Positions 2,091 to 50,635 of a stretch of 50,635 nucleotides of DNA are shown here, piece after piece. Made by a program: the position numbers and the translations under genes. Origin of the DNA: Planctomycetota bacterium (GTDB lineage: Bacteria > Planctomycetota > Planctomycetia > Planctomycetales > Planctomycetaceae). Numbering within the stretch: the stretch's first letter is position 1; each line of letters starts with the position of its first letter. The DNA lies in the NCBI GenBank assembly GCA_963578885.1, contig CAUZEQ010000001.1:1-50635 (forward strand), given 5' to 3'. Under the pieces are notes generated by a model. The model had not been told where the DNA came from. It saw nothing but the letters and a program-made list of their open reading frames with translations, and did not search any database.

Positions 2091-3535
2091 TGAGTCGAGT
2101 CGATCCCCACTCGCCGATCGCACAGGCACTCTCACGACGTACGTTGCTCGTCGCCGGAGCCACCGGGATCTATGGACTCGATGCCGCACGGTTGCAGGCG
2201 GCCCGCGGAGACCAGCCCACCGCCACGCCCGGCCAACGCCCGGCCCGCTCGACCATCCTCATCTGGCTCTCAGGCGGCACGTCGCACATCGACACCTTCG
2301 ACCTGAAACCCAAGGCCGCCCGCGAGTTCCGGGGCCCGTTTCAACCGATCGCCACCTCGGCACCGGGAGTCGAGATCAGCGAACACCTGCCGATGCTGGC
2401 CCGCCAGGCCCATCACTGTGCCATCATCCGCTCGCTGGGACACTTTCGCCGCGGCACCGGAGACCACCACGCCGGCTACTATTACAACCTCACCGGCCGG
2501 GCTCCCGATGACAGCTTCCGCAAACTGCTGAACTCGCGGACCCCGAGGAAAACCGACTGGCCGTTCATCGGCAGCGTCGTCGGCCAGCAGATGCCGCCGC
2601 ACCCCTACCTGCCCCAGGCGGTCTCGCTGCCCCAGAAGCCCGGTGCACCTCAGTACACACGACCCGGCCAGTTCGCCGCCAACCTCGGCATCATAAACGA
2701 CCCGGTCTACGTCTACGGCGATCTCGACAAGCCACTGAAGTTCACCGCGCCCGCCCTGTCACTCAATGGCGACATCACCCTCGATCGACTCAAGCACCGA
2801 CGTGGACTGCTCGAAACGCTCGACACCGCCACCCGACGTGTCGACAACTCACACGCCATCGTCGACTGGACGACGCACCAGCAACGAGCCTTCAGCTTCC
2901 TCGGCTCGCAGGCCACCAAGGACGCCTTCGATATCGCGTCGGAACCGCAGTCGGTCCGAGACCGCTACGGGGACGATCTGAACGCGATGAGCATGCTGAT
3001 GGCCCGGCGACTGGTCGAGGCCGGTGTGCCGTTCGTGTCGGTCTTCTGGAAAGGCGACAAGAAAGCGGCCGAGAAGCTCAACTGCAAGAGCGGTGGTGGC
3101 TGGGATACTCATGGCAACAACTTCGTCTGCCTCGAAAAGTACCTGCTGCCACGATTCGATCGCCCGTTCTCGGCACTGATCGAAGACCTCGACGATCGAG
3201 GACTACTCGATCAGACGCTGCTGATGGTCAACAGCGAGATGGGCCGGAAGCCCAAGATCGGCGACCCTCGATCCGGAGGCGTCAGCGGTCAGGGCCGCGA
3301 CCACTGGACGCATGCCCAAAGTATCCTGCTGGCCGGTGGAGGCATCCGAGGCGGGCAGGTCTATGGCACCTCCGACAAGGTCGGGGCCTACCCCGCCGAC
3401 AAACCGGTCGCTCCCGAAGACGTCGCCAAGACCGTCTACCACGCCATGGGACTGGGCAACCCCGAAGCGATCGACAGCGAGGGCCGACCCTACCGGATCC
3501 TCGAAGAAGGCGAACCGCTGACCGAGCTGTTTTAG
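2090..3535 (+). CDS. DUF1501 domain protein, tandem paralog, Tat signal
   Basis: Contains LSRRTLLVAGATGIYGL, STILIWLSGGTSHIDTFDLKPKA, FRGPFQPIATSAPGVEISEHLP, SEMGRKPK and GRDHW. The ATG at 2090 overlaps the upstream TGA (TGATG). The ORF track starts at the GTG at 2087, which is equally possible. Confidence 0.87.
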   Translation: MSRVDPHSPIAQALSRRTLLVAGATGIYGLDAARLQAARGDQPTATPGQRPARSTILIWLSGGTSHIDTFDLKPKAAREFRGPFQPIATSAPGVEISEHLPMLARQAHHCAIIRSLGHFRRGTGDHHAGYYYNLTGRAPDDSFRKLLNSRTPRKTDWPFIGSVVGQQMPPHPYLPQAVSLPQKPGAPQYTRPGQFAANLGIINDPVYVYGDLDKPLKFTAPALSLNGDITLDRLKHRRGLLETLDTATRRVDNSHAIVDWTTHQQRAFSFLGSQATKDAFDIASEPQSVRDRYGDDLNAMSMLMARRLVEAGVPFVSVFWKGDKKAAEKLNCKSGGGWDTHGNNFVCLEKYLLPRFDRPFSALIEDLDDRGLLDQTLLMVNSEMGRKPKIGDPRSGGVSGQGRDHWTHAQSILLAGGGIRGGQVYGTSDKVGAYPADKPVAPEDVAKTVYHAMGLGNPEAIDSEGRPYRILEEGEPLTELF

Positions 3536-3544
3536 CCACCCCCA

Positions 3545-3595
3545 GGGACTGGCTCCAGAGCCACGCCTCTGGCGGGGCGCCGGTGCCTGTCCCGG
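3545..3595 (+). repeat. GC-rich hairpin repeat, family A (GGGACTGGCTCC...GGTGCCTGTCCC), long form
   Basis: Begins 10 nt after the TAG stop at 3533-3535. The 12-nt termini can pair at 10 of 12 positions. Related copies lie at 3619-3670 (inverted), 12954-12996, 16053-16100 and 50550-50599. Confidence 0.85.
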
Positions 3596-3618: not shown

Positions 3619-3670
3619 CCGGGACAGGCACCTCCGCCCCGCCCGAGGGCGGGGCTGCGGAGCCAGTCCC
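3619..3670 (-). repeat. GC-rich hairpin repeat, family A, inverted copy
   Basis: The reverse complement reads GGGACTGGCTCCGCAGCCCCGCCCTCGGGCGGGGCGGAGGTGCCTGTCCCGG, closely matching 3545-3595. It ends 2 nt from the stop (3673-3675) of the minus-strand cytochrome gene, so it has the same orientation relative to that gene. Confidence 0.85.
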
Positions 3671-11889: not shown

Positions 11890-12954
11890 ATGCACACGAT
11901 GGTGATTGGGCAACGGCTCATTGTGCTCATCGCACTCCTGCTTGTGGGAATCACAGTCCCGGCTTGCCAGGAAGATGACGCCCCGCCGACGTTGACCACC
12001 ACGGCACCGACGGCACCCGGCACGGACGCCGACAGCCCCACGACCGCCAAGCCGCGTTCACGTACGTTCGAGTTTGACTACGGCGTGACGGTTCGGGACG
12101 TCCCCGCGGGATCACGGCTTTTGGTCTGGCTGCCGGTGCCGCAGACGACCAGCCACCAGCAGGCCAGCCGACTGAGACAGGATGTGCCGGTCGAACCCCA
12201 GCAGACGACCGAATCGAAATACGGCAACCAGATGCTGCACTTCGAACTCGAACCGTCCTCGGCCAAACCGCTCACCTTCCAGGTCACCTGGCAGATCACT
12301 CGCAACGAGGTGCGTGGCCTGGACCACTCCGACCCCGACGCCAGGCTCGACGACGCGAAGCGCAAGACCTTCCTGTCGGCCAACGCCAAGGTGCCGATCG
12401 ACGGCAAGCCGCTGACTCTGATCGATTCCTCAAAGCTCTCACGCGACAACCCGATCGAGTTGGGCCGGTCGCTTTATGAACGGGTCGACGACCACATGCG
12501 CTACGACAAGTCGCAGCCGGGCTACGGCAACGGCGACGTGCTGTGGGCCTGCGACAGCGGATTTGGCAATTGCACCGACTTTCACAGCCTGTTCATCTCG
12601 CTGGCCCGAGGCCAGGATCTGCCGGCCCGCTTCGAAATCGGATTCCCGCTGCCACCGACTCGGGGCGAGGGGACCATCGGTGGTTATCACTGCTGGGCCC
12701 AGTTCCACGTCGATGGGCACGGCTGGGTGCCCACCGATATCTCCGAAGCTGACAAGCACCCCGAGCTCAAGAACTACTACTACGGCAACCTGACGGAAGA
12801 CCGCGTGCAGTTGACCGTCGGCCGTGACATCACGCTCGAACCCGCCCAGCAAGGCGAACCACTCAACTACTTCATCTACCCGCACATCGAGGTGGATGGC
12901 AAGAGTTGGCCGGTGGAGAAAACCGACCGGGCATTCGCCTTTCGGGATCGCTAG
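11890..12954 (+). CDS. Transglutaminase-like cysteine peptidase family lipoprotein
   Basis: Has a lipoprotein-like signal (LLLVGITVPAC) and a Cys-His-Asp core pattern: GNCTDFHSLFISLARGQDLPARF, GYHCWAQF and GWVPTDISE. The stop TAG at 12952-12954 overlaps the first G of a family-A repeat. Confidence 0.82.
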   Translation: MHTMVIGQRLIVLIALLLVGITVPACQEDDAPPTLTTTAPTAPGTDADSPTTAKPRSRTFEFDYGVTVRDVPAGSRLLVWLPVPQTTSHQQASRLRQDVPVEPQQTTESKYGNQMLHFELEPSSAKPLTFQVTWQITRNEVRGLDHSDPDARLDDAKRKTFLSANAKVPIDGKPLTLIDSSKLSRDNPIELGRSLYERVDDHMRYDKSQPGYGNGDVLWACDSGFGNCTDFHSLFISLARGQDLPARFEIGFPLPPTRGEGTIGGYHCWAQFHVDGHGWVPTDISEADKHPELKNYYYGNLTEDRVQLTVGRDITLEPAQQGEPLNYFIYPHIEVDGKSWPVEKTDRAFAFRDR

Positions 12955-12996
12955 GGACTGGCTCCAGAGCCCCGCCTGCGGCGGAAGCCAGTCCCC
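12954..12996 (+). repeat. GC-rich hairpin repeat, family A short form (possible terminator or 3' stabiliser)
   Basis: The sequence is GGGACTGGCTccagagccCCGCCtgcGGCGGaAGCCAGTCCC. It forms a perfect 10-bp outer stem plus a 5-bp inner stem and starts at the last base of the TAG stop. Confidence 0.85.
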
Positions 12997-20869: not shown

Positions 20870-22207
20870 ATGCACATCGCCATCGTCACCGCCGGCGGCG
20901 CCGGGATGTTCTGCGGCTCGTGCATGCACGACAACACCTGGGCCCGATCGCTGATCGACGCGGGAGCCGATGTCAGCCTAGTCCCGACCTACACCCCGAT
21001 CCGGGTCGACGAACAGGACGTCAGCGGCTCGGACGTGTACTTCGGTGGAGTCGGCGTCTACCTGGCACACCGCAGCCGCCTGTTCTACCGCCTGCCACGG
21101 GTCCTGACACGCTGGGTCGACCGACCCTGGGTCCTGAAGCTGGCCACCCGGTTCAGTGTCAGCACCGACGCCAGGCACCTCGGCGCCCTCACGCTCGACA
21201 TGCTCCGTGGCGAGGAGGGACCGCACCGGGCACACGTGCTGGAACTCGCCGACGCCTTCGGCTCATTGCTCAAGCCCGACATCATCTGCTTCTCGAACGC
21301 ACTGCTGGCTGGCACGGCCCGAGCGATCAAGCAGCAGACCGACGTCCCGCTGTTGTGCGTCCTGCAGGGTGACGACGTGTTTCTCGAGGACCTGGTCGAA
21401 CCGTATCGCAGCCGGGCGATCGAGGCGATCCACGAACGAGCCGCCGACTTCGACGGGTTCATCGTCCACAGCGACTACTACCGTGATCACATGGTCCGCT
21501 ACCTCGGACTCGACGCCCGCAAGTTCCACACCCTGCCGCTGGGTATCGACCTGGCCGCACACGATGGCGAACCCGGCCAAAGAGACACATCGCAATCGCC
21601 CGACGACGACTCGTTCACCATCGGCTACTTCGCCCGCATCTGTCCCGAGAAGGGACTCGACCGACTGCTCGAAGCCTTTCGAATCCTGCATGCACGACGC
21701 CCCCGAGTCAGGCTCAGGGCAGGCGGATACCTCGGCCGGCGCGATCGCGAGTACTTCAACACCCTGCTGGCCGAGGCCGCGGACCTCGGCGATGCCTTCC
21801 AGTACATCGGCAGCCCGCCGGATACGGCCTCGAAGATCGAGTTCCTCAAGTCGCTCGACGTGCTCAGCGTCCCCACCGCGTACCGAGAACCCAAGGGACT
21901 CTACGTGCTCGAAGCACTCGCCAACGGAGTGCCGGTGGTGCAGCCCGATCACGGAGCCTTTCCCGAGTTGATCGCGGCGACCGGAGGAGGCGTGCTGGTC
22001 GAACCCGGTCACGCCGAAGCACTCGCCGATGCCCTCGAAGCACTCGCCAACGACTCGGACCGACGCATCCAACTGGCCACCACAGGTCAAAAGAAGGTCC
22101 GCGAACTGTTCGGACCGCAGCGAATGGCCAGAGAATCGCTCGAGCTCTTCGAACGTGTCGTGGCAGGGTATCACGGGGGGGCAGACGCCGTCCGTGGCGG
22201 GGCCTGA
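20870..22207 (+). CDS. Glycosyltransferase, GT-B fold (family 4-like)
   Basis: The C-terminal half contains YFARICPEKGLD, VLSVPTAYREPKGLYVLEALANGVPVVQPDHGAFPEL, i.e. the E-x7-E type GT4 pattern. Confidence 0.8.
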   Translation: MHIAIVTAGGAGMFCGSCMHDNTWARSLIDAGADVSLVPTYTPIRVDEQDVSGSDVYFGGVGVYLAHRSRLFYRLPRVLTRWVDRPWVLKLATRFSVSTDARHLGALTLDMLRGEEGPHRAHVLELADAFGSLLKPDIICFSNALLAGTARAIKQQTDVPLLCVLQGDDVFLEDLVEPYRSRAIEAIHERAADFDGFIVHSDYYRDHMVRYLGLDARKFHTLPLGIDLAAHDGEPGQRDTSQSPDDDSFTIGYFARICPEKGLDRLLEAFRILHARRPRVRLRAGGYLGRRDREYFNTLLAEAADLGDAFQYIGSPPDTASKIEFLKSLDVLSVPTAYREPKGLYVLEALANGVPVVQPDHGAFPELIAATGGGVLVEPGHAEALADALEALANDSDRRIQLATTGQKKVRELFGPQRMARESLELFERVVAGYHGGADAVRGGA

Positions 22208-22722
22208 GCCCCGATCCGCCGCAGCCTCCACGCAACTCCAACCCCCACCAGCACACCCGCACCAACCAGCTTCCACCACCACGGCCCAAACACCACCGTC
22301 GCGTTCACAAACAGAAACGCAAAGAGCCCGTGCAGTGCGACCAGGCGGCCGCGGCGCCAGCCCATCTCGGCCCCACGACTCCACCAGAACGCCGCTACGA
22401 CCAGCCACGTCAGTGTGAAGGCATAGTTGACCCACACACCCTGCCCGAAACCCCAGCCGGTCACTCGCTCGGTCAACCGAGCCGTATGCAACACCGCCTC
22501 GGCATGGCTCCAGCGATGTATGAAATGAAACGCACAAAACACATGGCCCACCTGTCCGAAGAGGCCGGCCGTAAACAGCAGCCGCCGTTTCGAGCCCCCT
22601 GCCCCGGCGACACTCAGCATCAGCCACCCCACCCAGCACCCCACCACCAGCCTCGCACTCCAGCGAGTCAGTTCCGGACCCAGCCCCGAGCTCAATTCGG
22701 TGAAGACTTCGGGAGAATTCAT
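22171..22722 (-). CDS. Hypothetical integral membrane protein (about 4-5 TM)
   Basis: The ORF has several hydrophobic helices (LVVGCWVGWLMLSVAGAG, VWVNYAFTLTWLVVAAFWW, LHGLFAFLFVNATVVFGPWWW). I recognise no family. Its 3' end overlaps the convergent GT4 gene by 37 nt. Confidence 0.5.
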   Translation of the reverse strand: MNSPEVFTELSSGLGPELTRWSARLVVGCWVGWLMLSVAGAGGSKRRLLFTAGLFGQVGHVFCAFHFIHRWSHAEAVLHTARLTERVTGWGFGQGVWVNYAFTLTWLVVAAFWWSRGAEMGWRRGRLVALHGLFAFLFVNATVVFGPWWWKLVGAGVLVGVGVAWRLRRIGAQAPPRTASAPP

Positions 22723-24035: not shown

Positions 24036-24186
24036 CAGCCTGTTGAATATCTCAGAGTCTGGGGTCAGACGCCGCCCGTGGCGGGGCCTGACCCCTTTTG
24101 TTCCTGCCACCGGTGAACGCGGGAAGGGTTCAGGCCCCGCCACGGGCGGCGTCTGACCCCTGCACTTGGCGTTTTTCAACAGGCTG
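24036..24186. repeat. 151-bp near-perfect palindrome built from two inverted family-B hairpin repeats (GGGGTCAGACGCC...GGCCTGACCCC)
   Basis: The outer arms CAGCCTGTTGAA (24036-24047) and TTCAACAGGCTG (24175-24186) are perfect complements. The inner units at 24061-24095 and 24126-24160 are reverse complements with one mismatch. Each unit is itself a hairpin. The element lies between convergent genes. Confidence 0.9.
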
Positions 24187-29276: not shown

Positions 29277-29344
29277 CTCATAGAACCGAACAGGCAAACA
29301 GCCGCACCGCTCTCTCGCCTCCATCTCCAGCCGAGTTCGCCGGA

Positions 29345-29383
29345 GGCGGACGTCATGTCTTAGCCCGGGGTGTAAACCCCGGG
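29345..29383 (+). repeat. GC-rich repeat, family C (…CATGTCTTAGCCCGGGGTGTAAACCCCGGG), left arm
   Basis: This is an inverted partner of 29545-29587. The shared core is GGCGGACG..CATGTCTTAGCCCGGGGTGTAAACCCCGGG. Confidence 0.85.
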
Positions 29384-40800: not shown

Positions 40801-41913
40801 GTGTCCTCAGACACACCCACACCGCAGCCGACACCGCAGCCGACACCGCAACCGAAACAGCACATCGAGCCGGACCAGGCGGCGGTCAAGCGGCTGAACG
40901 AAGCGGCTGAGCGGATCCATGGTGAGTTGGGGCAGGTGATCGTCGGCCAGGCTGCGGTGATCGAGGAACTGCTGGTGGCGATGCTGGCTGGAGGCCACGC
41001 GTTGCTGGTGGGTGTGCCTGGTTTGGCCAAGACGCTGATGGTCCGCACCCTCGCCGACACGCTGGGACTCTCCTTCTCACGCATCCAGTTCACTCCCGAC
41101 CTGATGCCGGCAGACATCACCGGCACCGAGGTGATCCAGGAGGATCGCAGCAGCGGGACGCGGGACTTCAAGTTCCTGGCCGGCCCGGTCTTCGCCAACG
41201 TGGTGCTGGCCGATGAGATCAACCGCACGCCTCCCAAGACCCAGGCCGCGCTGCTCGAGGCGATGGAAGAGCACCAGGTCACGGCCGGAGGACGTCGGCA
41301 CCAGTTACCCGAACCCTTCTTCGTCCTGGCCACTCAGAACCCGATCGAACAGGAGGGCACCTATCCGCTCCCCGAAGCCCAGCTCGATCGATTCATGTTC
41401 CAGGTCCTGGTCGACTACCCGGCGGCGGACGAGGAGTTCGAGATCATCCGCAGGACCACGGCCGACGAGTCGCCGGTCGCTCAGACGGTGATCGAACACG
41501 ACGATGTCGTGGCCCTGCAGCAGTTGGTCCGGAGAATTCCGGTCGCCGATCACGTCATCCGCTACGCCATCGATCTCTGCCGCCTCTCGCGACCCACCCG
41601 ATCCTCCGACACCGAACCCGACGGGTTCATCGATCGGTACGTGCAATGGGGTGCCGGGCCGCGAGCCGGGCAATCGCTGGTGCTCGGTGGTAAGGCTCGA
41701 GCCGTCCTCGCGGGACGCACGTTTGTCGGCATCGACGACATCCGGGCCGTCGCCTACCCGGTGCTACGGCACCGGATCATCACCAGTTTCCATGCCGAGG
41801 CCGACCGGATTGTCCCCAACGATGTCGTCGACTGGCTGCTCAAAGAGACTCCCGCCGTCGAGTCGATCGACAACCAGGCCGTGGCACGAATCTTCCGGGG
41901 ATCCGATCAGTGA
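40801..41913 (+). CDS. moxR: MoxR-family AAA+ ATPase (AAA_3)
   Basis: Contains [14 protein letters not shown] (Walker A), [29 protein letters not shown] (Walker B and sensor) and [27 protein letters not shown] start. The N-terminus carries a [14 protein letters not shown] repeat. Confidence 0.9.
40819..40854 (+). repeat. 12-bp tandem repeat ACACCGCAGCCG x3 (third copy has one substitution), coding for (TPQP)n
   Basis: Read directly from the sequence. The copies are 40819-40830, 40831-40842 and 40843-40854. Confidence 0.9.
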
Positions 41914-42866
41914 CCGCTGACGGCCAGGTGTCCACCGACCCGGTGCCCTCAGAGACCACTCCCAACCTGGTCGACTCGACACTCCAGTCCCGCCTCCACG
42001 GACTCACGCTCGAGACCCGCCGTCGGCTCGAGGGTACGGTGACCGGGCGTCACCGGAGTCGGCTGAGAGGGTTTTCGGCCGAGTTTGCCGAGCACCGCGA
42101 GTATGTCGCCGGAGACGACCTGCGGTACGTCGACTGGAAAGTCTACGGCCGCAGCGACCGGTATCACCTGAAGCAATTCGAGGACGAGACCAACTTCTCG
42201 TGCTGGCTGGTTCTGGACACCAGCGAGTCGATGTCGTACCGCTCGGGGGACGCCCCACTCTCGAAACTCGACCACGCCCGCCGGGCCGCAGCAGCCCTGG
42301 CCTGGCTGGTCCTGCGACAGTCCGATGCCGTCGGACTGGTCACCGTCGCCGGCAAGCTCGGACAACTCCTCCCACCCTCCACCCAACCCTCGCACCTCGG
42401 GCAACTCAACCAGGCCCTGCTTGCGAGCTCCGCCGAGGGTCCGACCGGGCTGGGCTCGGCCTTCAGCGACCTCGCCTCCCGACTGACTCGACCCGCCATC
42501 GTCATCTGCTTCAGCGACCTCTTCGATGACCTCGATCAGACCTTCGCGGGGCTCGAACAACTCGCCTGGCGAGGCCATGATGTGGTGGTGCTGCAGGTGA
42601 TCGACCCGGCCGAGCAGGACTTTCCCTTCGAAGACCCGACCCGGTTCGTGGGGATGGAAGGTGAAGCCGACCAGGTGGTCGAACCCCGGGCACTGGCCGA
42701 TGCCTACCGAGCCGAATTCCGCCGGTTCCTCGAAGACGTCTCGACACGCTGCCGCTCGATGCAGATGGACTACCGCCTGCTGCGAAGCGACGTACCGCTG
42801 GGTGACGTGCTCCCCCGCTTCCTGCAAGCCCGCCGGCGTCGCCGGGGACCAGGGGCCAGGCCATGA
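41910..42866 (+). CDS. DUF58 domain protein (vWA-like, MoxR partner)
   Basis: Contains GRHRSRLRGFSAEFAEHREYVAGDDLRYVDWKVYGRSDRYHLKQFEDE, the hallmark DUF58 block. The GTG start overlaps the moxR stop (GTGA). Confidence 0.88.
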   Translation: MTADGQVSTDPVPSETTPNLVDSTLQSRLHGLTLETRRRLEGTVTGRHRSRLRGFSAEFAEHREYVAGDDLRYVDWKVYGRSDRYHLKQFEDETNFSCWLVLDTSESMSYRSGDAPLSKLDHARRAAAALAWLVLRQSDAVGLVTVAGKLGQLLPPSTQPSHLGQLNQALLASSAEGPTGLGSAFSDLASRLTRPAIVICFSDLFDDLDQTFAGLEQLAWRGHDVVVLQVIDPAEQDFPFEDPTRFVGMEGEADQVVEPRALADAYRAEFRRFLEDVSTRCRSMQMDYRLLRSDVPLGDVLPRFLQARRRRRGPGARP

Positions 42867-42889
42867 TTTCCATGATTTCCATGATTTCC
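42863..42889 (+). repeat. 9-bp tandem repeat ATGATTTCC x3 at the start codon (MISMISMIS)
   Basis: The copies are 42863-42871, 42872-42880 and 42881-42889. They give three in-frame ATGs, and the first overlaps the upstream TGA. Confidence 0.95.
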
Positions 42890-45358
42890 ACCTCGCTGCT
42901 CGCACTGACCTTCGGCAGCCCCTGGCTGCTGCTGGGAGCCGCACTGGCGGCGATTCCGGCGATCCTGCACCTGCTGTTTCGACGCGAGCATCGTGCCGAA
43001 CCGTTCGCCGCCAACCGCTTCCTGGCCGAAGCAACACGCAAACACTCCCGACGACTCCGCTTCCAGCACTGGGTCCTGCTGGCGATGCGGATGGCAATCC
43101 TGCTGCTGATCGCCATCGCGCTGGCGCGACCCATTCTCGAAGACAGTCTCGCCGAGCCTCCCACCGGACGCGCCCCACTCCACCACCTCTTCGTCCTCGA
43201 CGCCACGCTCAGCATGAGGCACCGCGACCGGGGACAGCAGAGGTTTGATCGGGGACGAGCGATTCTCCAGAAGACCGTCGAAGCAGCCCACGACGGCGAC
43301 ACCTTCCGCCTGCTGGTCATTCGAGCCGCAGGGGCACAGGTCGTGATCGCCCAGGCCGCCGGTCGACGGGGTGATGTGCTCGAGGAACTTGCTCGGCTGG
43401 AACCGACCTGGGAATCGGGACGTGTAATCGAAACGCTCGAGACTCTCGAAACCACGCTGGCACTGCTCAACACGCCAATCCCCTCGGGCCGACTCCGAGT
43501 CTCACTCGTTACCGACCTCCAACGCTCCGCCTGGCAACCCGCCGATCAGGACCGCCGAAACCGGATCCGGGATCTGCTCCGCTCGATCAGCCAGCAATCC
43601 GAACTGGTCGTCTACGACGTCTCAGGACCGCCCGCCTCCAACACCGCCGTCGTCGAACTGAAGTCCGAGACGGCCGTGGCGATCGTCGGTGAAGCGGTGA
43701 CACTGCGAGCCACCGTCTCGCACTTCGGGCCTCCCGAACCGCCCTCAGCAGCGGTCAAAACACAGGTCGAATGGCACATCGATGGCCGGATGGTTGCTCG
43801 CAGAGGTCTCAAGCTCAAGCCCCGGAGTACCACCACCGTCGAATGGACTCACCACTTCGCCGCAGCCGGCGAACACCATGCCGAAGTCAGGCTCAGCGGC
43901 GATGGACTCCCCGACGACAATCACCGGCACATCGCCCTGCCGGTTCGTGACCGGCTGAGAGTGCTGCTGGCGGGAGGCCGCTTTGGAGCGGGTCCGGACA
44001 AGGTCGCCACGTTCTATGTCGAAGCCGCTCTCGATCCGAGACTCGGCACAGCGGATGGCTCCACCGAAGCGATCGAATCACCTCGAGTCGCAACCACCGT
44101 GATCTCCGAAAGCCGCCTCGTGGGCCAGGACCTCGATCGACACGACTGCATCGTCCTCTGCGATGTCCCGCGACTCGACCGGCTCGAAGTTTCCAGGCTG
44201 GCCCGGTTTGTCTCCTCAGGCGGAGGCCTGGTGATCGGGCTGGGCGATTCGGTCCACACCGAATCCTGGAACCGGTTGCTGGGCCCGGAGGGTGCCGACC
44301 TGCTGCCGGGGCGGATCAACGAACTCGTCTCCGCTGATGACCCCAACCAGCAGGCCGTCGTCTTTGATCCGGGCAACTACGCTCATCCACTGCTCGCTGT
44401 CTTCCGAGGCCTCGACGGGAATGGGCTGGGGACCACGGTCACGCTGAGATATCTCGACACAACCCCGCTGCCCGGCAGCCAGGTCGCCCTGGCGTTTGAT
44501 TCCGGCGACCCCGCCATCCTGGTGAGGCGGTTCGGTCACGGGCACGTGGTGCTGGTCACCACCTCGCTCGATCCCCGCTGGACCACCTGGCCGGTCCTCT
44601 CGAGCAGCTTTCCGCCGATGGTCCATGAACTGGTCCGCTACGCGACCTCGGGACGCTGGTCGGCTCGCAATCACCTCCTCGGTCATCCCATCATCCGCCC
44701 CATCGGACCCTTGGTCACCGCCGGCACCCTGCTGGCTCCCGACGGCAGCAGCCTGGCCATGGAAAACCCCGTCGCCACAAACACCCGGCCACGAGATGAC
44801 TCCGGCGAGATCCCCGAACCGGGCAACACCCCAACCGGCCGACTGATCAGCGACCCTCCGCTCGTGCCGGGCATCTACTGGCTCTCACTGGTGCCTCCGG
44901 CCGAGGCAATCGAGACGTACGGAGTCAACCTGGACTCCTCCGAGAGCGACCTGGCGACGGCCGTCGGCCAGACCGACCGGGCCAGGCTCTCGGGAGTCGA
45001 CGCTCCGATCTACACACGCTGGCACGATGCCGCCGCGGTCTTCGAACAACCGGGTCGGCCACTGGGTCGGCTGCTGCTCAGCATCCTGCTGGGGCTGCTG
45101 GTGGTCGAACTGACCATGGCCTGGAAGTTCCGTGCCGGGGCGGTGGCACTGGGAGTACTGCTGGTGGCCGGGACGCTCGGAGTCGGGGGGGGGGGTGGGG
45201 TGGGTGGGGTGGGTGCGGTGGGTGCGGTGGGTGCGGTGGGTGCGGTGGGTGCGGTGGGTGCGGTGGGCGTGGTGGGCGTGGTGGCTGCGGTGTGGGGCCG
45301 CAGGGTGCTGCGCAATCGCTATGGCCGTCACAGACGGCGTTTGGGGAGTGCCGGCTGA
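42863..45358 (+). CDS. BatA-N-terminal-domain membrane protein (aerotolerance-operon type), vWA-like middle region, C-terminal TM and Gly/Val-rich tail
   Basis: The N-terminus reads FGSPWLLLGAALAAIPAILHLLFRR, the BatA N-terminal pattern. A MIDAS-like motif VLDATLSM is present. A C-terminal hydrophobic segment is followed by GVGGGGGVGGVGAVGAVGAVGAVGAVGAVGVVGVV. The ATG overlaps the DUF58 stop (ATGA). Confidence 0.78.
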   Translation: MISMISMISTSLLALTFGSPWLLLGAALAAIPAILHLLFRREHRAEPFAANRFLAEATRKHSRRLRFQHWVLLAMRMAILLLIAIALARPILEDSLAEPPTGRAPLHHLFVLDATLSMRHRDRGQQRFDRGRAILQKTVEAAHDGDTFRLLVIRAAGAQVVIAQAAGRRGDVLEELARLEPTWESGRVIETLETLETTLALLNTPIPSGRLRVSLVTDLQRSAWQPADQDRRNRIRDLLRSISQQSELVVYDVSGPPASNTAVVELKSETAVAIVGEAVTLRATVSHFGPPEPPSAAVKTQVEWHIDGRMVARRGLKLKPRSTTTVEWTHHFAAAGEHHAEVRLSGDGLPDDNHRHIALPVRDRLRVLLAGGRFGAGPDKVATFYVEAALDPRLGTADGSTEAIESPRVATTVISESRLVGQDLDRHDCIVLCDVPRLDRLEVSRLARFVSSGGGLVIGLGDSVHTESWNRLLGPEGADLLPGRINELVSADDPNQQAVVFDPGNYAHPLLAVFRGLDGNGLGTTVTLRYLDTTPLPGSQVALAFDSGDPAILVRRFGHGHVVLVTTSLDPRWTTWPVLSSSFPPMVHELVRYATSGRWSARNHLLGHPIIRPIGPLVTAGTLLAPDGSSLAMENPVATNTRPRDDSGEIPEPGNTPTGRLISDPPLVPGIYWLSLVPPAEAIETYGVNLDSSESDLATAVGQTDRARLSGVDAPIYTRWHDAAAVFEQPGRPLGRLLLSILLGLLVVELTMAWKFRAGAVALGVLLVAGTLGVGGGGGVGGVGAVGAVGAVGAVGAVGAVGVVGVVAAVWGRRVLRNRYGRHRRRLGSAG
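45185..45289 (+). repeat. G11 homopolymer followed by about 10 units of a 9-bp G-rich repeat (GTGGGTGCG x6 plus variants), inside a CDS
   Basis: There are 11 consecutive G at 45185-45195. Six perfect GTGGGTGCG units span 45209-45262, flanked by the variants GTGGGCGTG x2 and GTGGCTGCG. Confidence 0.95.
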
Positions 45359-45508: not shown

Positions 45509-47296
45509 GTGTCGACCACCCAGCCTCGTCAATCGGCCGCGCGGGACGCCGCGGGGATCAGCGGAGCCGACATCCTGGTCGAGTCGCTGATTCACCAGGG
45601 TGTCGACTGCATCTTCGCCTATCCCGGCGGAGCCAGCATGCCGCTGCACCAGGCGTTGATCCGCAACGCCGAGAGGCTGAGGACGATTCTGCCGCGACAC
45701 GAGCAGGGCGGCGGCTTCGCAGCCCAGGGCTACGCCCGCAGCACCGGCCGCGTCGGTGTCTGTATGGCCACCAGTGGACCCGGCGCCACCAACCTCGTCA
45801 CCACCCTCGCCGATGCCAAGATGGACAGTGTGCCGGTGGTGGCGATCACCGGGCAGGTGTCCAGGCAGGTGATCGGCACCGACGCCTTCCAGGAGACTCC
45901 GATCGTCGAGGTCTGCCGTGCGGTCACCAAGCACCACTACCTGGTGACCGAGATCGAGGACGTGGCACGGGTGGTCAAGGAGGCCTTTTACGTGGCCCGC
46001 ACCGGCCGGCCCGGACCGGTCCTGATCGACTTCCCCAAGGACGTGCAGGTACTCACGCTCGACGAACCCCCCGACTTCGATCCTCCAACCGATCTGCCGG
46101 GATACCATCCCGAGGCACGAACGTCTCAGCCAGAACAGATCGGGCAGCTGATCGCCGCCATCCGCCGCTCGCGACGCCCGATCCTGTACGTCGGTGGCGG
46201 AGTCATCAACGGGGAGGCTTCGGAATTGCTGGCGACCTTTGCACACCGTACCGGCATCCCGGTGGCCAATACGCTGATGGGAATCGGTGCCTTCCCCGCT
46301 GACGATCCGCAGTCACTGGGCATGCTCGGCATGCACGGTACCGTCTATTCCAACTACGCCATCAACGAAGCCGACCTGCTGCTGGCCCTGGGTGTCCGTT
46401 TCGACGATCGCGTCACCGGCAAGCTCGAAGAATTCGCTCAACACGGCAAGATCGTTCACGTCGATATCGATCCGTCCGAAATCCACAAGAACAAGGAAGC
46501 TCATATCCCGATCGTCTCCGACGTCGCAGACGTGCTCGAACAACTCAACGAACAGATCACCGATGACGACGTGCCGCAGATCGACGAGTGGCTCGAGACG
46601 GTTGCCGAGTGGAAAGAGGCCAACCCGCTGTTGTGCCCCGACGACCCGCAGCTGATCCACCCGCAAACAGCGATTAGGGAACTGGCCCGCCTGACCGCCG
46701 ACCGCGATACGTTTGTCAGTGTCGGAGTCGGACAGCACCAGATGTGGTCGGCTCAGCACTTCCCCTTCCACCTGCCACGTCGCTGGATGAGCAGTTCGGG
46801 ATTGGGCACGATGGGCTTCGGTTTGCCCGCCGCCATGGGGGCCCAAGCCGCCAACCCCGATGCACTCTGCATCGACATCGATGGCGATGGGTCGTTCCAG
46901 ATGAACATCCAGGAACTGGCCACGCTGCACTGCGAGAAGCTGCCGGTGAAGATCCTGCTGCTCAACAACCAGCACCTCGGCATGGTCATGCAGTGGGAGG
47001 ATCGGTTCTTCGACGGACGACGGGCTCATACATGGCTCGGACCCGTCGACGCACCCGAATACACGGGCTCCGGAGACGGACACCTCGAAGAGACCTACCC
47101 CGACTTCGTCTCGATCGCCCGCGGATACGGAATCGACGGGGCCCAGGTCCGACAACGCAGCCAACTCGCCGACGCACTGGCCACCATGCTCGCCTGTAAG
47201 GGCCCCTACCTGCTCGATGTCATCTGCCCCTACCAGGAACACGTGCTTCCGATGATCCCCAGTGGGCACTCGGTGCGAGACATCATCACCGAGTAG
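45509..47296 (+). CDS. ilvB: Acetolactate synthase (acetohydroxyacid synthase) large catalytic subunit, biosynthetic type
   Basis: Contains [44 protein letters not shown], the ThDP motif [15 protein letters not shown]...[10 protein letters not shown]...LNN and a C-terminal MIPSG. GTG start. Confidence 0.92.
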
Positions 47297-47387
47297 CCTG
47301 TCGAGGCTGAGTGCGGAGGTGTAAACTGGTCCGTCGAAGGGGCTGTTTCAATCGTGTCCGAAGTCCCGGATCAGCGAGATCAGCGAG

Positions 47388-47681
47388 ATGGCGAGTTACA
47401 AGAAGTTTGATCTACGGCTCGAGTCCCTGGTTGTGGAGACCAAGACGGTGTTCGATCCGGAAGTCGAAGCCGAGATCCAGGAATTCGATGGGCACCTCGA
47501 TGCAGACGCCGGCAGCGAAGTCGACACGCACGAAAAACTCTCGGCATTGATCCACTCGCAGCCCCGACTCGCCAGCCAGATCTTCTACGAGCGGGCCCAC
47601 ACCGGGTTCACTCGCGAGATCACCGTGACCCGGGCTGATGTCGAGCGGTTGTTCACCGAGTTGGCCGCGGCCTCAAGCTGA
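47388..47681 (+). CDS. Hypothetical 97-aa acidic protein, first gene of a coupled trio
   Basis: The ATG start is preceded by a direct 9-bp duplication, TCAGCGAGA x2, at 47371-47388. The stop TGA overlaps the next ATG (TGATG at 47679-47683). I recognise no family. Confidence 0.5.
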
Positions 47682-48661
47682 TGGCCGATCACGTCGAGAT
47701 CCGCGGCGTCCGCCTCCATCTCTCGTCGGCCGATCCGTCACGCAGCGAGTGGATCGGGCAGGGCGAAGTGCTCAGGCAACTGCTCGCCTGCTGGTTGACC
47801 GTCGATGACCAGGACCTGCCGCTGGCTCCCCGGCTGACCGGGGCCCCGGGAATCGGCAAGACCACCCTGGCCATGGCGGCCGCGGCCGCGCGAAAACAGG
47901 ACCTGTTCGTCTACCAGTGCACCGCCGACACGCGACCCGAAGACCTGCTGGTCACTCCGGTACTGGCCGAATCCGGCACGATCCAGTACCACGCCAGCCC
48001 GCTGGTCACCGCGATGCTCACCGGAAGCGTCTGCGTGCTGGATGAGGGCAACCGGATGAACGAAAAGTCGTGGGCCAGCCTCGCACCGCTGCTGGACCAC
48101 CGACGCTACGTCGAGTCGATCGTTGCCGGCATCACCATCCCGGCCTCTGACGACTTCCGCTGCGTGGTCACGATGAACGAGGACGAGTCGACCTTCGAAG
48201 TCCCCGACTACATCCTCAGCCGACTCCAGCCCACACTCGTGCTCGAACACCCCTCGCGAGACGACGAGCGAGCGATCCTCGAGTACCACCTCCCCTTTGC
48301 CAACGCCGAAATGCTCAACCTCACCGTCGAATTCCTCCAGCAGGCTCACAAACTGAAACTCGACTTCTCCACACGTGACGGCATCAACGTGATCCGCTAC
48401 GCACTCAAACGCCTCGCCTCCGACCCACAACACCCTCTCTCCAGAGACCACGCCTGGGCCGAATCGGTGACCGCCTGCCTGGGCGACGATGCACTCGATC
48501 TCCAGACTCTCGCCACCCAAAAGCAGCAATCCCTGGGCGGCAACATCATTCCGCTGGGACTGGGAGACTTCTTCTTCTCCGGCGACGACCCGCTGCACCC
48601 CGACGTCGACCTCGACGATGACGATCTTGACGACGAAGACGTTGATGAGTCCGGACCATGA
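47681..48661 (+). CDS. AAA+ ATPase of the AAA_5/MoxR-CbbQ-like type with poly-acidic C-terminal tail
   Basis: Has Walker [14 protein letters not shown], Walker [11 protein letters not shown] and sensor-like [17 protein letters not shown] and a lid-like [12 protein letters not shown] are also present. The tail reads [19 protein letters not shown]. The stop overlaps the next ATG (ATGA at 48658-48661). Confidence 0.8.
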
Positions 48662-50550
48662 GCGACGTGATCAGCGGACCACTGGCGATCAGCGACCAGA
48701 CGCTGGCCGTGCCGGTGATCCACGGCAGCGGCGATTTTTCCATCGCCGTCCGCAAAGTGATGCTCGAACACGACTTCGACTGCCTGGCCGTCCCGCTGCC
48801 ACCGTCGTTCCAGGCCGACACCGAAGCCGCGCTCGAACACCTGCCCGGCGCCACGATCACCCTGCAGCACGAATCGGCTCGATTCGAGGAACCCGGCTGG
48901 ACACCCGAAGACCAGCACGACGATGACCCGTCCGAGGTGCGGCGAGCCAGCTACGTGCCGATCGATCCGTGCCAGCCGGTGATCGCGGCCCTGAGAACCG
49001 CGGTGGGAGAACACATTCCCCGGGCGTTTGTCGACCCCGAAACCAGGCCCTGGGAACCGCTGGCCGCCGTGCTGCCCGATGCCTACGCGCTGAAACGTGT
49101 CGAGCTCGAACAGTTCGCCGCCGCCATCCTGCCCGCACTGCCCCGGCCACCCGATGGACAACCCACAGATCGGGTCGAACACATCGCCGCGCGAATTCAC
49201 GAACTCGAGCAGCAGCACGAATCGATCCTCCTGGTCTGCAGCCTGCTCGATTGGCCGTGGATCCGCGAGTCGTACCACCGCGACGGCGGACGGATCTGCC
49301 AGGGCGATGAGGTCCAAGAGACCCAGGCGCTGGCCGTCGACCCCCGCACACTCGCCTTTGTCCTGGGCGAATTGCCCTTCATTACCGGGCTCTACGAGAC
49401 CGCTCGAGCACGACTCGACGACGATCAGAATCTGTCCGTCGACGGACTCAAGGAACTGCTGCTGGAAACCCGCGACCGGTACAAGTCGGAATGGAAGTCG
49501 CGGGCACGCTCGATCACACCCCAGCTGCTCTCGACCTTCTTCCGCTACGTCCGAAACCTCTCGCTGATCGAACGACGGCTGACGCCGGACCTCTATACCC
49601 TGGTCACCGCCGCCAAGCAGGTGGCTGGAGACGAGTTTGCGATCACGCTGGCCGAAACCGCTCGCGACTACCCCTATGCGTTGCCGCTGCCGCTCGAGGA
49701 GATTCGGTTCGGGATCGGGCAGGGAGAACTGCCCGGCGGGGAACGGGTCGAGTTGGTCAGCCGACTGCCGGGTCCACCACTCAGCTGGCGAACCGTGAGA
49801 CTCAAGCCCCGCCCGCCTCAACCACAACAGGACCAGTGGCAGATGCAGTGGGATCCGCATCGGCAGTGCAGCTGGCCACCGGAAGACAATGCGATCGAGC
49901 GGTTTCGGACTCACGTCAAGGACTCGGCCCTGTCGCTGCTCGGAGCCGACCTGGCCCGCTCCGAAAAGTTCACGACCAGCTTCCGAGACGGTCTCGATAT
50001 CCGAGAAACACTCAGGAACTGGCACACCGGAGACCTGTTCGTCAAGGTGCTGCCGCCCACCCGTGGCAGCCTCGACTGCGTGCTGATGTTCTTCGATTCA
50101 CCGGCCGATCCCCGCGACTACCCGTGGCGGATCACCTGGATGGCCGAGCATCATGACGAATCGACCCTGGCCCTGTTTGCCTCCAACTTCCAGGCCGAAC
50201 TCGCCGGGCCCGGTATCGGAGTGGCCAGCTACGGTGGGGCGATGTTCCTGTTCCCGCCACGGCCGATTCCCGACGTCTGGGTCGACCCGAGGTTCGATTG
50301 GGCCGACACGCTCGAGGAACGACTGCTCGCCGCGGCCTGCCACTACAGCCACGAACGACACATCGCCGTGCTCAGCCATGCCCCACCCGGGGCCGCCTGG
50401 CGGCGAATCGCACGGCAACACCGTCGCAAGCTGATCCACGTACCCCTGGGGCGCTTCAGCCAGGAAACCGTCGCCCGCCTGCGACAGGTCCACGTGCTCA
50501 ACGGACAGGAAGTCCGCAGCTACGCCGCTCACTTCATCCGCAAGGCGTAG
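48658..50550 (+). CDS. Uncharacterised 630-aa protein (possibly DUF5682/TraB-GumN-like), third gene of the coupled trio
   Basis: This is a long ORF with normal amino-acid composition and it is translationally coupled to the ATPase. The N-terminal [33 protein letters not shown] and the later [25 protein letters not shown] resemble TraB/GumN-type and DUF5682 layouts, but I cannot verify this without an HMM search. The stop TAG at 50548-50550 is embedded in a family-A repeat. Confidence 0.6.
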
Positions 50551-50599
50551 GGACTGGCTCCAGAGCCGAGCCGGAGGCGAGGGCGCCGGTGCCTGTCCC
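50550..50599 (+). repeat. GC-rich hairpin repeat, family A long form
   Basis: The sequence is GGGACTGGCTCCAGAGCCGAGCCGGAGGCGAGGGCGCCGGTGCCTGTCCC. It starts at the last base of the TAG stop, and its first 18 nt are identical to the copies at 3545 and 12954. Confidence 0.85.
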
Positions 50600-50635
50600 G
50601 ACATCGATCGCCGGCTCTTGCAGCGGAAACAGACA

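Follow-up and report, generated by a model that had tools for sequence, protein, structure and literature searches.

A MoxR-class ATPase and a proposed partner lacking a vWA domain form a conserved gene pair in Planctomycetaceae and in very divergent bacteria

Few AAA+ proteins are as poorly understood as the MoxR-class ATPases, which, according to the prevailing paradigm, act through partners that carry a vWA domain. The stretch of DNA analysed here (50,635 nucleotides of a member of the Planctomycetaceae, positions 1 to 50,635 of contig CAUZEQ010000001.1 in assembly GCA_963578885.1, hereafter the window) holds near its end an ATPase gene of this class, placed between the gene of a small protein, p97, and that of a large one, p630. 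Which partner, then, does such an ATPase work with when no vWA gene accompanies it? An initial annotation of the window had taken the three genes for a translationally coupled trio and for its best candidate for an undescribed ATPase-driven module. As described below, the pair formed by the ATPase and p630 is real and widespread, and it would provide a MoxR-class ATPase with a dedicated partner that is not a vWA protein; from these observations we infer a mechanism for the pair. The three genes of the locus are the following.

47388-47681, + strand: p97 gene (97 residues), from the list of open reading frames (ORFs)
47681-48661, + strand: gene of the AAA_5/MoxR-class AAA+ ATPase (326 residues), from the ORF list and the PF07728 match
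48658-50550, + strand: p630 gene (630 residues), from the ORF list

All three are read in the same direction, as had been reported, and they are joined by start/stop overlaps that can be read directly from the sequence: TGATG at 47679-47683, where the p97 stop meets the ATPase start, and ATGA at 48658-48661, where the ATPase stop meets the start of p630.

The arrangement of the last two genes is kept far from the lineage of the window. A sample of 80 metagenomic loci was seeded from a clade whose p630 is about 30% identical to that of the window and has an intact catalytic-type motif (see below), and 71 of these loci were informative in a translated search (the alignment from the first metagenome scan, A5, was too diverse for pattern design, and alignment A6 was used instead). 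The ATPase gene adjoins p630, upstream and on the same strand, in 62 of the 71, lies within a few kb in five and is absent in four. Additionally, an AAA_5 gene is found immediately upstream of p630 in five of six further distant contexts, and there are loci (L088, L089 and L090) in which the ATPase stop overlaps or touches the p630 start. The conserved unit is, then, the pair of ATPase and p630, usually with overlapping or tightly spaced genes, across very divergent bacteria. In Planctomycetaceae both members are under strong purifying selection, with ATPase orthologues (labelled merely “MoxR/AAA family ATPase”) 75-80% identical across the family and p630 proteins that share 62-67% identity from one genus to another (Schlesneria and Gimesia, for instance).

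A third partner does not emerge from these comparisons. The gene-annotated contexts show neither a vWA nor a SWIM gene next to the pair, no gene of any kind, these two included, recurs as a third member among some 160-170 loci, and p630 has no other conserved neighbour in Planctomycetaceae loci. The commonest neighbours of the pair in distant loci read as ordinary housekeeping genes. At the end of the window, the expectation that no vWA or SWIM gene would follow p630 was confirmed by inspecting the source contig beyond 50635, where convergent Lactamase_B, TPR, GFO_IDH_MocA, SIS and OMPdecase genes are located. One candidate, a cluster of minus-strand ORFs upstream of the pair (c2), was rejected: it coincided almost exactly with the loci where the ORF caller had missed the ATPase, and since tblastn, which does not depend on ORF calls, placed the ATPase there, c2 is taken to represent antisense shadow ORFs of the ATPase gene, a reading that derives from this coincidence of loci. 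Long ORFs that resembled ATPase-p630 fusions were likewise discarded as frame artefacts.

We propose that the core of the locus is a two-protein, ATP-driven module in which the MoxR-class ATPase works with p630 as a dedicated partner, at the position that the vWA protein holds in classical MoxR systems; in our judgement the chances that this reading is right or wrong are evenly balanced. In concert with partner proteins, MoxR ATPases serve as chaperones or as remodelling factors (PMC3893208, PMC13036017). By analogy with the role of the vWA adaptors of NorQ, CbbQ and RavA (PMC3893208, PMC13036017), the ATPase, presumably a hexamer like other MoxR proteins, would bind p630, and the hydrolysis of ATP would then reshape p630 or a client held by it. 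The likeness to the classical MoxR-vWA pairs (NorQ/NorD, CbbQ/CbbO, RavA/ViaA and the operon at 40801-45358 in the window) lies in the presence of a single-module MoxR-class ATPase beside a larger dedicated partner. By contrast, p630 has no vWA domain or metal ion-dependent adhesion site (MIDAS), and the absence of a DxSxS motif, already pointed out in the initial annotation, was corroborated; no vWA gene is linked to p630 in the loci examined; and the ATPase of the window bears a conserved aromatic and acidic C-terminal extension. The features of this protein to be considered are listed next.

47840..47863, + strand: Walker A motif GAPGIGKT (ATPase residues 54-61)
48029..48046, + strand: Walker B motif VCVLDE (ATPase residues 117-122)
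48566..48658, + strand: extension at the C-terminus of the ATPase, LGDFFF..DPLHPD and then a poly-D/E tail, kept among orthologues

The ATPase matches PF07728 (AAA_5) with 79.4 bits (E 3.5e-22, gathering cut-off 22), and the clear Walker A and Walker B motifs described earlier begin at residues 54 and 117, with G57, G59, K60, T61, D121 and E122 invariant among the ATPase sequences of alignment A7. With the sequence and the family profile as queries, the solved proteins that come closest are midasin AAA modules, CbbQ (1.5e-9), NorQ (4e-8) and a MoxR (1e-4). Consequently, judged by its sequence, the protein is a MoxR-class AAA+ ATPase with no close characterised relative. The acidic tail that had been called unusual is indeed so, with a net charge of -14 over the last 26 residues, and it is not peculiar to the window: LGDFFF..DPLHPD and the poly-acidic run are kept in 120 of the 120 orthologues listed, whose last 30 residues contain a median of 14 D/E and 0 K/R. 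The extension is absent from the short ATPases (274-293 residues) of the clades in which p630 has an intact motif.

The identity of the partner is less straightforward. Its three domains, as delimited on the sequence and on the structural model, are these.

48703..49362, + strand: N-terminal alpha/beta domain of p630, remotely DUF5682/TraB (TIKI)-like (about residues 16-235)
49375..49665, + strand: helical middle domain of p630 (about residues 240-336, by DSSP on the AlphaFold2 model)
49693..50547, + strand: C-terminal alpha/beta domain of p630 (about residues 346-630)

No match to p630 was found in Pfam, NCBIfam, PADLOC or the PDB sequences, in keeping with its description as unassigned in the initial annotation. 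Its own family is large: a word-indexed search returned more than 3500 homologues, all of them “hypothetical” and without Pfam domains, and an exhaustive search returned 1010 clusters at 50% identity (E<=1e-3), many of them matching over the full length at 26-35% identity. The named members include metagenome-assembled genomes of Planctomycetota and of Deltaproteobacteria/Syntrophobacteria, and the distant clades consist mostly of metagenome proteins. An AlphaFold2 model built from a 101-sequence alignment reached a predicted local distance difference test score (pLDDT) of 94.6 and a predicted template modelling score (pTM) of 0.88; a first model from a shallow alignment (pLDDT 65) had been discarded, as its Foldseek matches were meaningless.

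The initial annotation had pointed to TraB/GumN-fold proteins and the DUF5682 proteins of the E. coli yehL-yehM-yehP-yehQ cluster, and this likeness stands for about the first 300 residues and not for the rest of the protein. When the diverse p630 alignment (A2, 101 sequences) was compared with E. coli YehM, hhalign gave a probability of 90.9% (E 1.2e-6, 270 columns) over p630 residues 16-318 and YehM residues 5-320, a signal that was seen only with this alignment and not with a shallow one of 34 sequences. The helical middle domain takes part in this match weakly, up to residue 320. Additionally, the hidden Markov model (HMM) of the p630 family scores 30.8 bits on YehM 6-216, with four TraB-type motifs aligned. 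YehM is a bona fide DUF5682 protein (PF18934 at 330.8 bits, positions 1-695 of 727), whereas the p630 of the window does not match PF18934 at E<=1 and cannot be counted as a full-length DUF5682 member. Among 51 distant relatives of p630, PF18934 is matched by 19 (best 4.9e-8), always over short N-terminal stretches (the best at 31.1 bits over 1-80 of 727), TraB_PrgY_gumN (PF01963) by six, below threshold (best E 0.0025), and DUF5694 by four, in addition to sporadic unrelated matches (Mor in three, two other families in one each). The window protein has no match to PF01963 above the gathering score. When the p630 model was compared with a viral Foldseek library, the highest-ranking match belonged to the TraB family (probability 0.99, E 3.8e-3, template modelling score normalised to the target 0.41). 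As a separate observation, the Mor matches correspond to a transcription-activator-like domain (PF08765, best E 3.9e-4) fused at the C-terminus of the three homologues concerned, among them P0188 (806 residues).

The comparison with E. coli also shows where the two systems part. The layout of the yehLMPQ cluster was as stated earlier, and there too an AAA_5/MoxR-family gene (YehL) is located immediately upstream of a DUF5682 protein (YehM). However, the E. coli cluster includes a vWA protein (YehP) and a SWIM protein (YehQ), both missing from the module of the window; the ATPase of the window has no specific similarity to YehL (BLASTP E 0.27); and the C-terminal half of YehM is helical, whereas p630 has a different, highly conserved alpha/beta domain there, with no alignment beyond about YehM residue 320 and none of its motifs found in YehM. 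Thus, the proposal that the locus is a minimal version of YehLMPQ did not hold, since the module is not simply a trimmed form of that cluster.

In the N-terminal domain, most members of the p630 family contain a His/Glu/Glu/His set resembling the catalytic 2His/2Glu of the TIKI/TraB/PrgY/GumN/erythromycin-esterase superfamily, to which the sub-threshold TraB matches and the Foldseek match mentioned above may also point. At the aligned positions, H-E-R-E-G-H is observed in 47 of 92 ATPase-linked p630 homologues. The clade of the window differs, with H-P-R-V-S-D (H22, P46, R172, V173, S195 and D198 in the window), so that at the four catalytic-type positions it has H22, P46, V173 and D198 against a family consensus of H, E, E and H, and a single His is kept. 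Active enzymes of the TIKI superfamily use the 2His/2Glu motif, and members without it (PMT C1/C2) are inactive (PMC6254334). As three of the four TIKI/TraB-type positions are lost, the catalytic motif is not present in the p630 of the window, and its N-terminal domain is probably non-catalytic.

With regard to our proposal of a two-protein ATP-driven module, these differences suggest a history. Since the full TIKI-type set is found in most p630 lineages, the ancestral module would probably have been an ATPase-gated hydrolase (a peptidase or an esterase). In the Planctomycetaceae lineage of the window, three of the four residues would have been replaced while the ATPase gained LGDFFF..DPLHPD and the poly-acidic tail; the N-terminal domain would most likely have become a non-catalytic binding domain, and activity would reside in the C-terminal domain and the ATPase. 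At the level of clades, 29 of 31 pairs with a degenerate p630 have an ATPase that bears the acidic tail, as opposed to 7 of 47 pairs with an intact one. The last 56 residues of p630 are strongly basic (net +10), and the acidic tail of the ATPase (-14) may dock on this end.

The C-terminal domain is the most conserved part of the p630 family, with motifs that include AEHxxES, GPGI, YGG and HVLNGxxVRS, and S405, E414, G445, E497, P533, H612 and R620 are invariant in 101 diverse p630 sequences. It matches no PDB entry by sequence or fold and has no significant structural neighbour in the PDB and viral Foldseek libraries. RNase-H-like folds recur in both libraries for the p630 model (m390a55f0b4c9), among them short Argonaute/SPARTA PIWI proteins, RuvC/Holliday junction resolvases and retroviral integrases, at probabilities of <=0.2; these matches may hint at the fold of the domain, and we keep them as a lead that has not been accepted.

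The conserved residues of this domain bear on two other readings of the pair. It could be a chaperone that inserts metals or cofactors, on the model of NorQ/NorD, CbbQ/CbbO or CoxD/CoxE, in which p630 would replace the vWA adaptor, a Glu/His/Asp cluster of its C-terminal domain would bind metal and the ATPase would aid delivery to an unlinked client enzyme; we regard this as possible and unlikely. MoxR-vWA pairs do insert metals (PMC13036017), the solved ATPases that come nearest are CbbQ and NorQ, E414, E497, H498, E501, E553/E554 and H612 are invariant or near-invariant, and a variable neighbourhood suits a client encoded elsewhere. However, metal binding by this domain is purely conjectural, p630 lacks the MIDAS/vWA domain of the known adaptors, no client gene is consistently nearby, and the intact 2His/2Glu hydrolase-type site in most relatives of p630 would be left unexplained. 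That site is instead the starting point of the second reading, an ATP-dependent protease or hydrolase of a new kind that would still be active in the lineage of the window, with the AAA+ ring unfolding or presenting substrates and the active site in, or relocated to, the C-terminal domain. TIKI enzymes include endopeptidases (PMC6254334), and the invariant Ser, Glu, His and Arg of the C-terminal domain could serve such an activity, but no peptidase family matches this domain, three of the four TIKI catalytic residues are missing from the window protein and no MoxR-class ATPase is known to feed a protease. Two distant loci have Peptidase_S41/Tricorn genes directly upstream of the pair, and one has a transglutaminase-core gene downstream of it, but with 3 cases in about 170 loci such neighbours are anecdotal. 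Overall, we hold this second reading to be improbable.

The remaining protein of the locus, p97, is acidic (isoelectric point 4.75) and belongs to a family of 174 detectable members, 81-97 residues long and all from Planctomycetaceae-type sources. The family has no Pfam domain and no match to a solved structure; it holds an invariant motif, and the lineage of the window also carries a 14-residue acidic insert (alignment A4). By means of the family HMM, p97 was detected in 10 distinct loci among 41 distinct ATPase-bearing loci, always upstream of the ATPase and on the same strand (the window and its duplicate L093 are taken once, and the ATPase-bearing loci numbered 44 before the window duplicates L093-L095 were removed). 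It adjoins the ATPase in the window, L001, L002, L012, L097 and L098, and is located 1-7 kb upstream in L096, L066, L022 and L041. In L098, p97 and the ATPase are followed 2.5 kb later by a frame-shifted p630, and no ilvB is present. L097 (3292-13188), by contrast, repeats the whole block of MoxR, DUF58, BatA, ilvB, p97, ATPase and p630, with a p630 only about 62% identical to that of the window. Thus, the trio is not conserved as a unit: the ATPase and p630 are, whereas p97 is confined to these loci, all in Planctomycetaceae.

The position of p97 directly after an ilvB-like gene in the window, L001, L002, L012, L096 and L097 raises the question of whether it belongs to ilvB as a diverged small subunit of acetolactate synthase, in which case the trio would be an accident of gene order; the opposite-strand gene that parts p97 from the ATPase in L096 fits this view. 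However, hhalign of p97 against E. coli IlvN gives a probability of 0.4%, an ACT domain was matched in none of 33 members, the p97 stop overlaps the ATPase start, and p97 stands upstream of ATPase-p630 genes without ilvB in L098, L022, L041 and L066. We consequently reject p97 as IlvN, and find the wider notion of an acetolactate-synthase subunit very doubtful. The initial annotation had the module inserted after ilvB, where ilvN would be expected; it does follow ilvB, but this is a lineage-local synteny and p97 is unrelated to IlvN. Within our preferred reading of an ATPase-p630 module, p97 is best read as a lineage-specific accessory that lies outside the conserved core and is no substitute for ilvN, and it would be an auxiliary or regulatory subunit whose translation is coupled to that of the ATPase.

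As there are conflict systems among the MoxR-vWA ternary systems (PMC7159879), an anti-phage or conflict role of a MoxR-centred type must also be considered. We give it very little credence. PADLOC has no match for the three proteins beyond noise (E >= 0.05), the genes appear to be single-copy and are very highly conserved across genera, their neighbours are of the housekeeping kind, the GC content of the module equals that of the window (0.644 vs 0.647), and PMC7159879 makes no mention of TraB, TIKI or YehM.

Several observations weigh against the interpretation of the pair as an ATPase acting on a TIKI-like partner. The first concerns linkage. In a sample of 80 genome loci from Planctomycetaceae, 70 of which had enough flank, the ATPase is directly upstream of p630 in 23, nearby in two and missing from the flank in 45; additionally, two long contigs carry a solitary ATPase gene. 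The coupling of the two proteins may therefore be looser in the window's own lineage. No fusion of the ATPase and p630 genes was found, and about three quarters of the ATPase-bearing loci have no p97 in the vicinity of the ATPase. The second concerns the assignment of the N-terminal domain to TraB/TIKI, which is remote, the window protein matching no Pfam family. Foldseek of the model with pLDDT 94.6 against the PDB returned no solved TIKI-fold structure and nothing better than E 0.27, and hhalign of p630 against E. coli YbaP (TraB) gave 0.8%, that is, no signal, so that membership of TraB by way of YbaP was rejected. Setting these null results against the YehM, Pfam and Foldseek matches, we place the domain remotely within the DUF5682/TraB (TIKI-like) assemblage and outside both Pfam families. 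Furthermore, the correlation between acidic tail and degenerate motif tracks clade structure instead of independent events and is confounded by phylogeny, and any activity of the C-terminal domain of p630 can only be surmised, because this domain has no recognisable fold relative.

The surroundings of the pair provide some further observations. Upstream of the trio in the window, the classical MoxR (AAA_3)-DUF58-BatA/vWA operon (40801-45358) and the ilvB-like gene, which codes for a thiamine pyrophosphate enzyme, were found as previously described. In L096 (5601-14622), the opposite-strand gene inserted between p97 and the ATPase is of the LOG/Lysine_decarbox family. A divergent gene of about 260-350 residues, on the opposite strand, is often located directly upstream of the ATPase (L083 8952-9809, L084 572-1429 and, as cluster c3, in 13 Planctomycetaceae loci); its product in L083 and L084 is a deacetylase of the PIG-L family, and in L066 the gene sits between p97 and the ATPase. 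Occasionally, in distant lineages, the gene directly upstream of the pair codes for a Peptidase_S41/PDZ or Tricorn-type protease or the one downstream for a transglutaminase-core protein, and HEAT-repeat proteins (about 370 residues) are sometimes beside the pair or a solo ATPase, with a HEAT gene downstream of the p630 homologue in L085-L087. These protease, transglutaminase and HEAT neighbours (L089 3678-5027, L092 2629-5982, L091 7976-9673, L085-L087 and L082 8499-9602) are too few to form a pattern.

No intrinsic terminator, sigma-70-like promoter or Rfam family was predicted or matched within 47000-50635. The locus is bordered by repeats.

47370..47387, + strand: 9-bp tandem repeat ATCAGCGAG, two copies, abutting the p97 ATG
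50549..50635, + strand: copy of a dispersed intergenic repeat element, beginning at the TAG stop of p630 and cut by the window end

The first confirms the 9-bp direct duplication that had been described at the first ATG. The number of units varies: L001, the nearest other lineage, has three copies of GATCACCGA (about 3490-3519), and the repeat is absent in the more distant relatives L002, L012 and L096-L098; this copy-number variation could affect translation initiation. Overall, the window contains eight runs of 9-bp tandem duplication. The second repeat belongs to a dispersed element of about 90-100 nt, formed by an 18-nt core, GGGACTGGCTCCAGAGCC, and then ..GGCG..GCCGGTGCCTGTCCC. The core has four copies in the window, where 0.14 would be expected (3545-3562, 3653-3670 on the minus strand, 12954-12971 and 50550-50567). 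Those at 12954 and 50550 follow a TA, which creates a TAG, and the latter copy supplies the stop codon of p630. The element looks REP-like (after the repetitive extragenic palindromic sequences). The initial annotation had seen here a family-A hairpin repeat holding the final TAG; a dispersed repeat is indeed present at this codon, but the hairpin predicted for it does not exceed shuffled sequence in stability (z = -0.75).

Other repeats were observed elsewhere in the window. A perfect 13-bp tandem repeat, TGACTACAGGGTC, is present in about 6-8 copies at 490-593, and the BatA-like gene contains 9-bp tandem repeats at 45164-45298, where they code for a C-terminal (G/A)VG-rich repeat, and at 42861-42873, where they code for an N-terminal MISMISMIS start; both are likely to be length-variable coding repeats. 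A 35-nt GC-rich, palindromic-looking sequence (GGGGNCAGACGCC..GGCGGGGCCTGANCCC) occurs twice, 1.9 kb apart and with 91% identity (22177-22211 and 24061-24095), and a match to the Rfam small RNA Acido-Lenti-1 is located at 29334-29383 on the minus strand (38.2 bits against a gathering score of 37, E 3.4e-5).

The view of the initial annotation that this is an undescribed module has been sustained, since no Pfam, NCBIfam or PADLOC family covers p630 and no paper describing the ATPase-p630 module was found. Our literature searches likewise retrieved no paper on DUF5682 and none linking MoxR with TraB/TIKI, and yehM and yehL appeared in gene lists only. We know of no TIKI/TraB-superfamily enzyme that pairs with an AAA+ ATPase. 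A more ambitious interpretation, tentative and in our opinion unlikely, would make the pair an unrecognised class of AAA+ machine, in which a MoxR-type ring acts on a TIKI/TraB-type hydrolase with a C-terminal domain of novel fold; it would be an ATP-gated peptidase or esterase across several phyla, and in Planctomycetaceae it would have been turned into a near-universal housekeeping chaperone based on a pseudo-enzyme, with the acidic tail and p97 as new regulatory parts.

In any case, the large p630 family (about 1000 clusters at 50% identity) pairs a MoxR-class ATPase with a partner completely different from a vWA protein. Should the pair prove functional, MoxR adaptors would span a wider range, and an AAA+ motor would be linked to a putative hydrolase of the TIKI/TraB type. 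The coexistence of lineages with an intact active site and lineages in which it is degenerate would, in addition, provide a natural experiment on the role of the ATPase, and the pair would offer a first functional handle on the unexplained YehL-YehM pair of E. coli.

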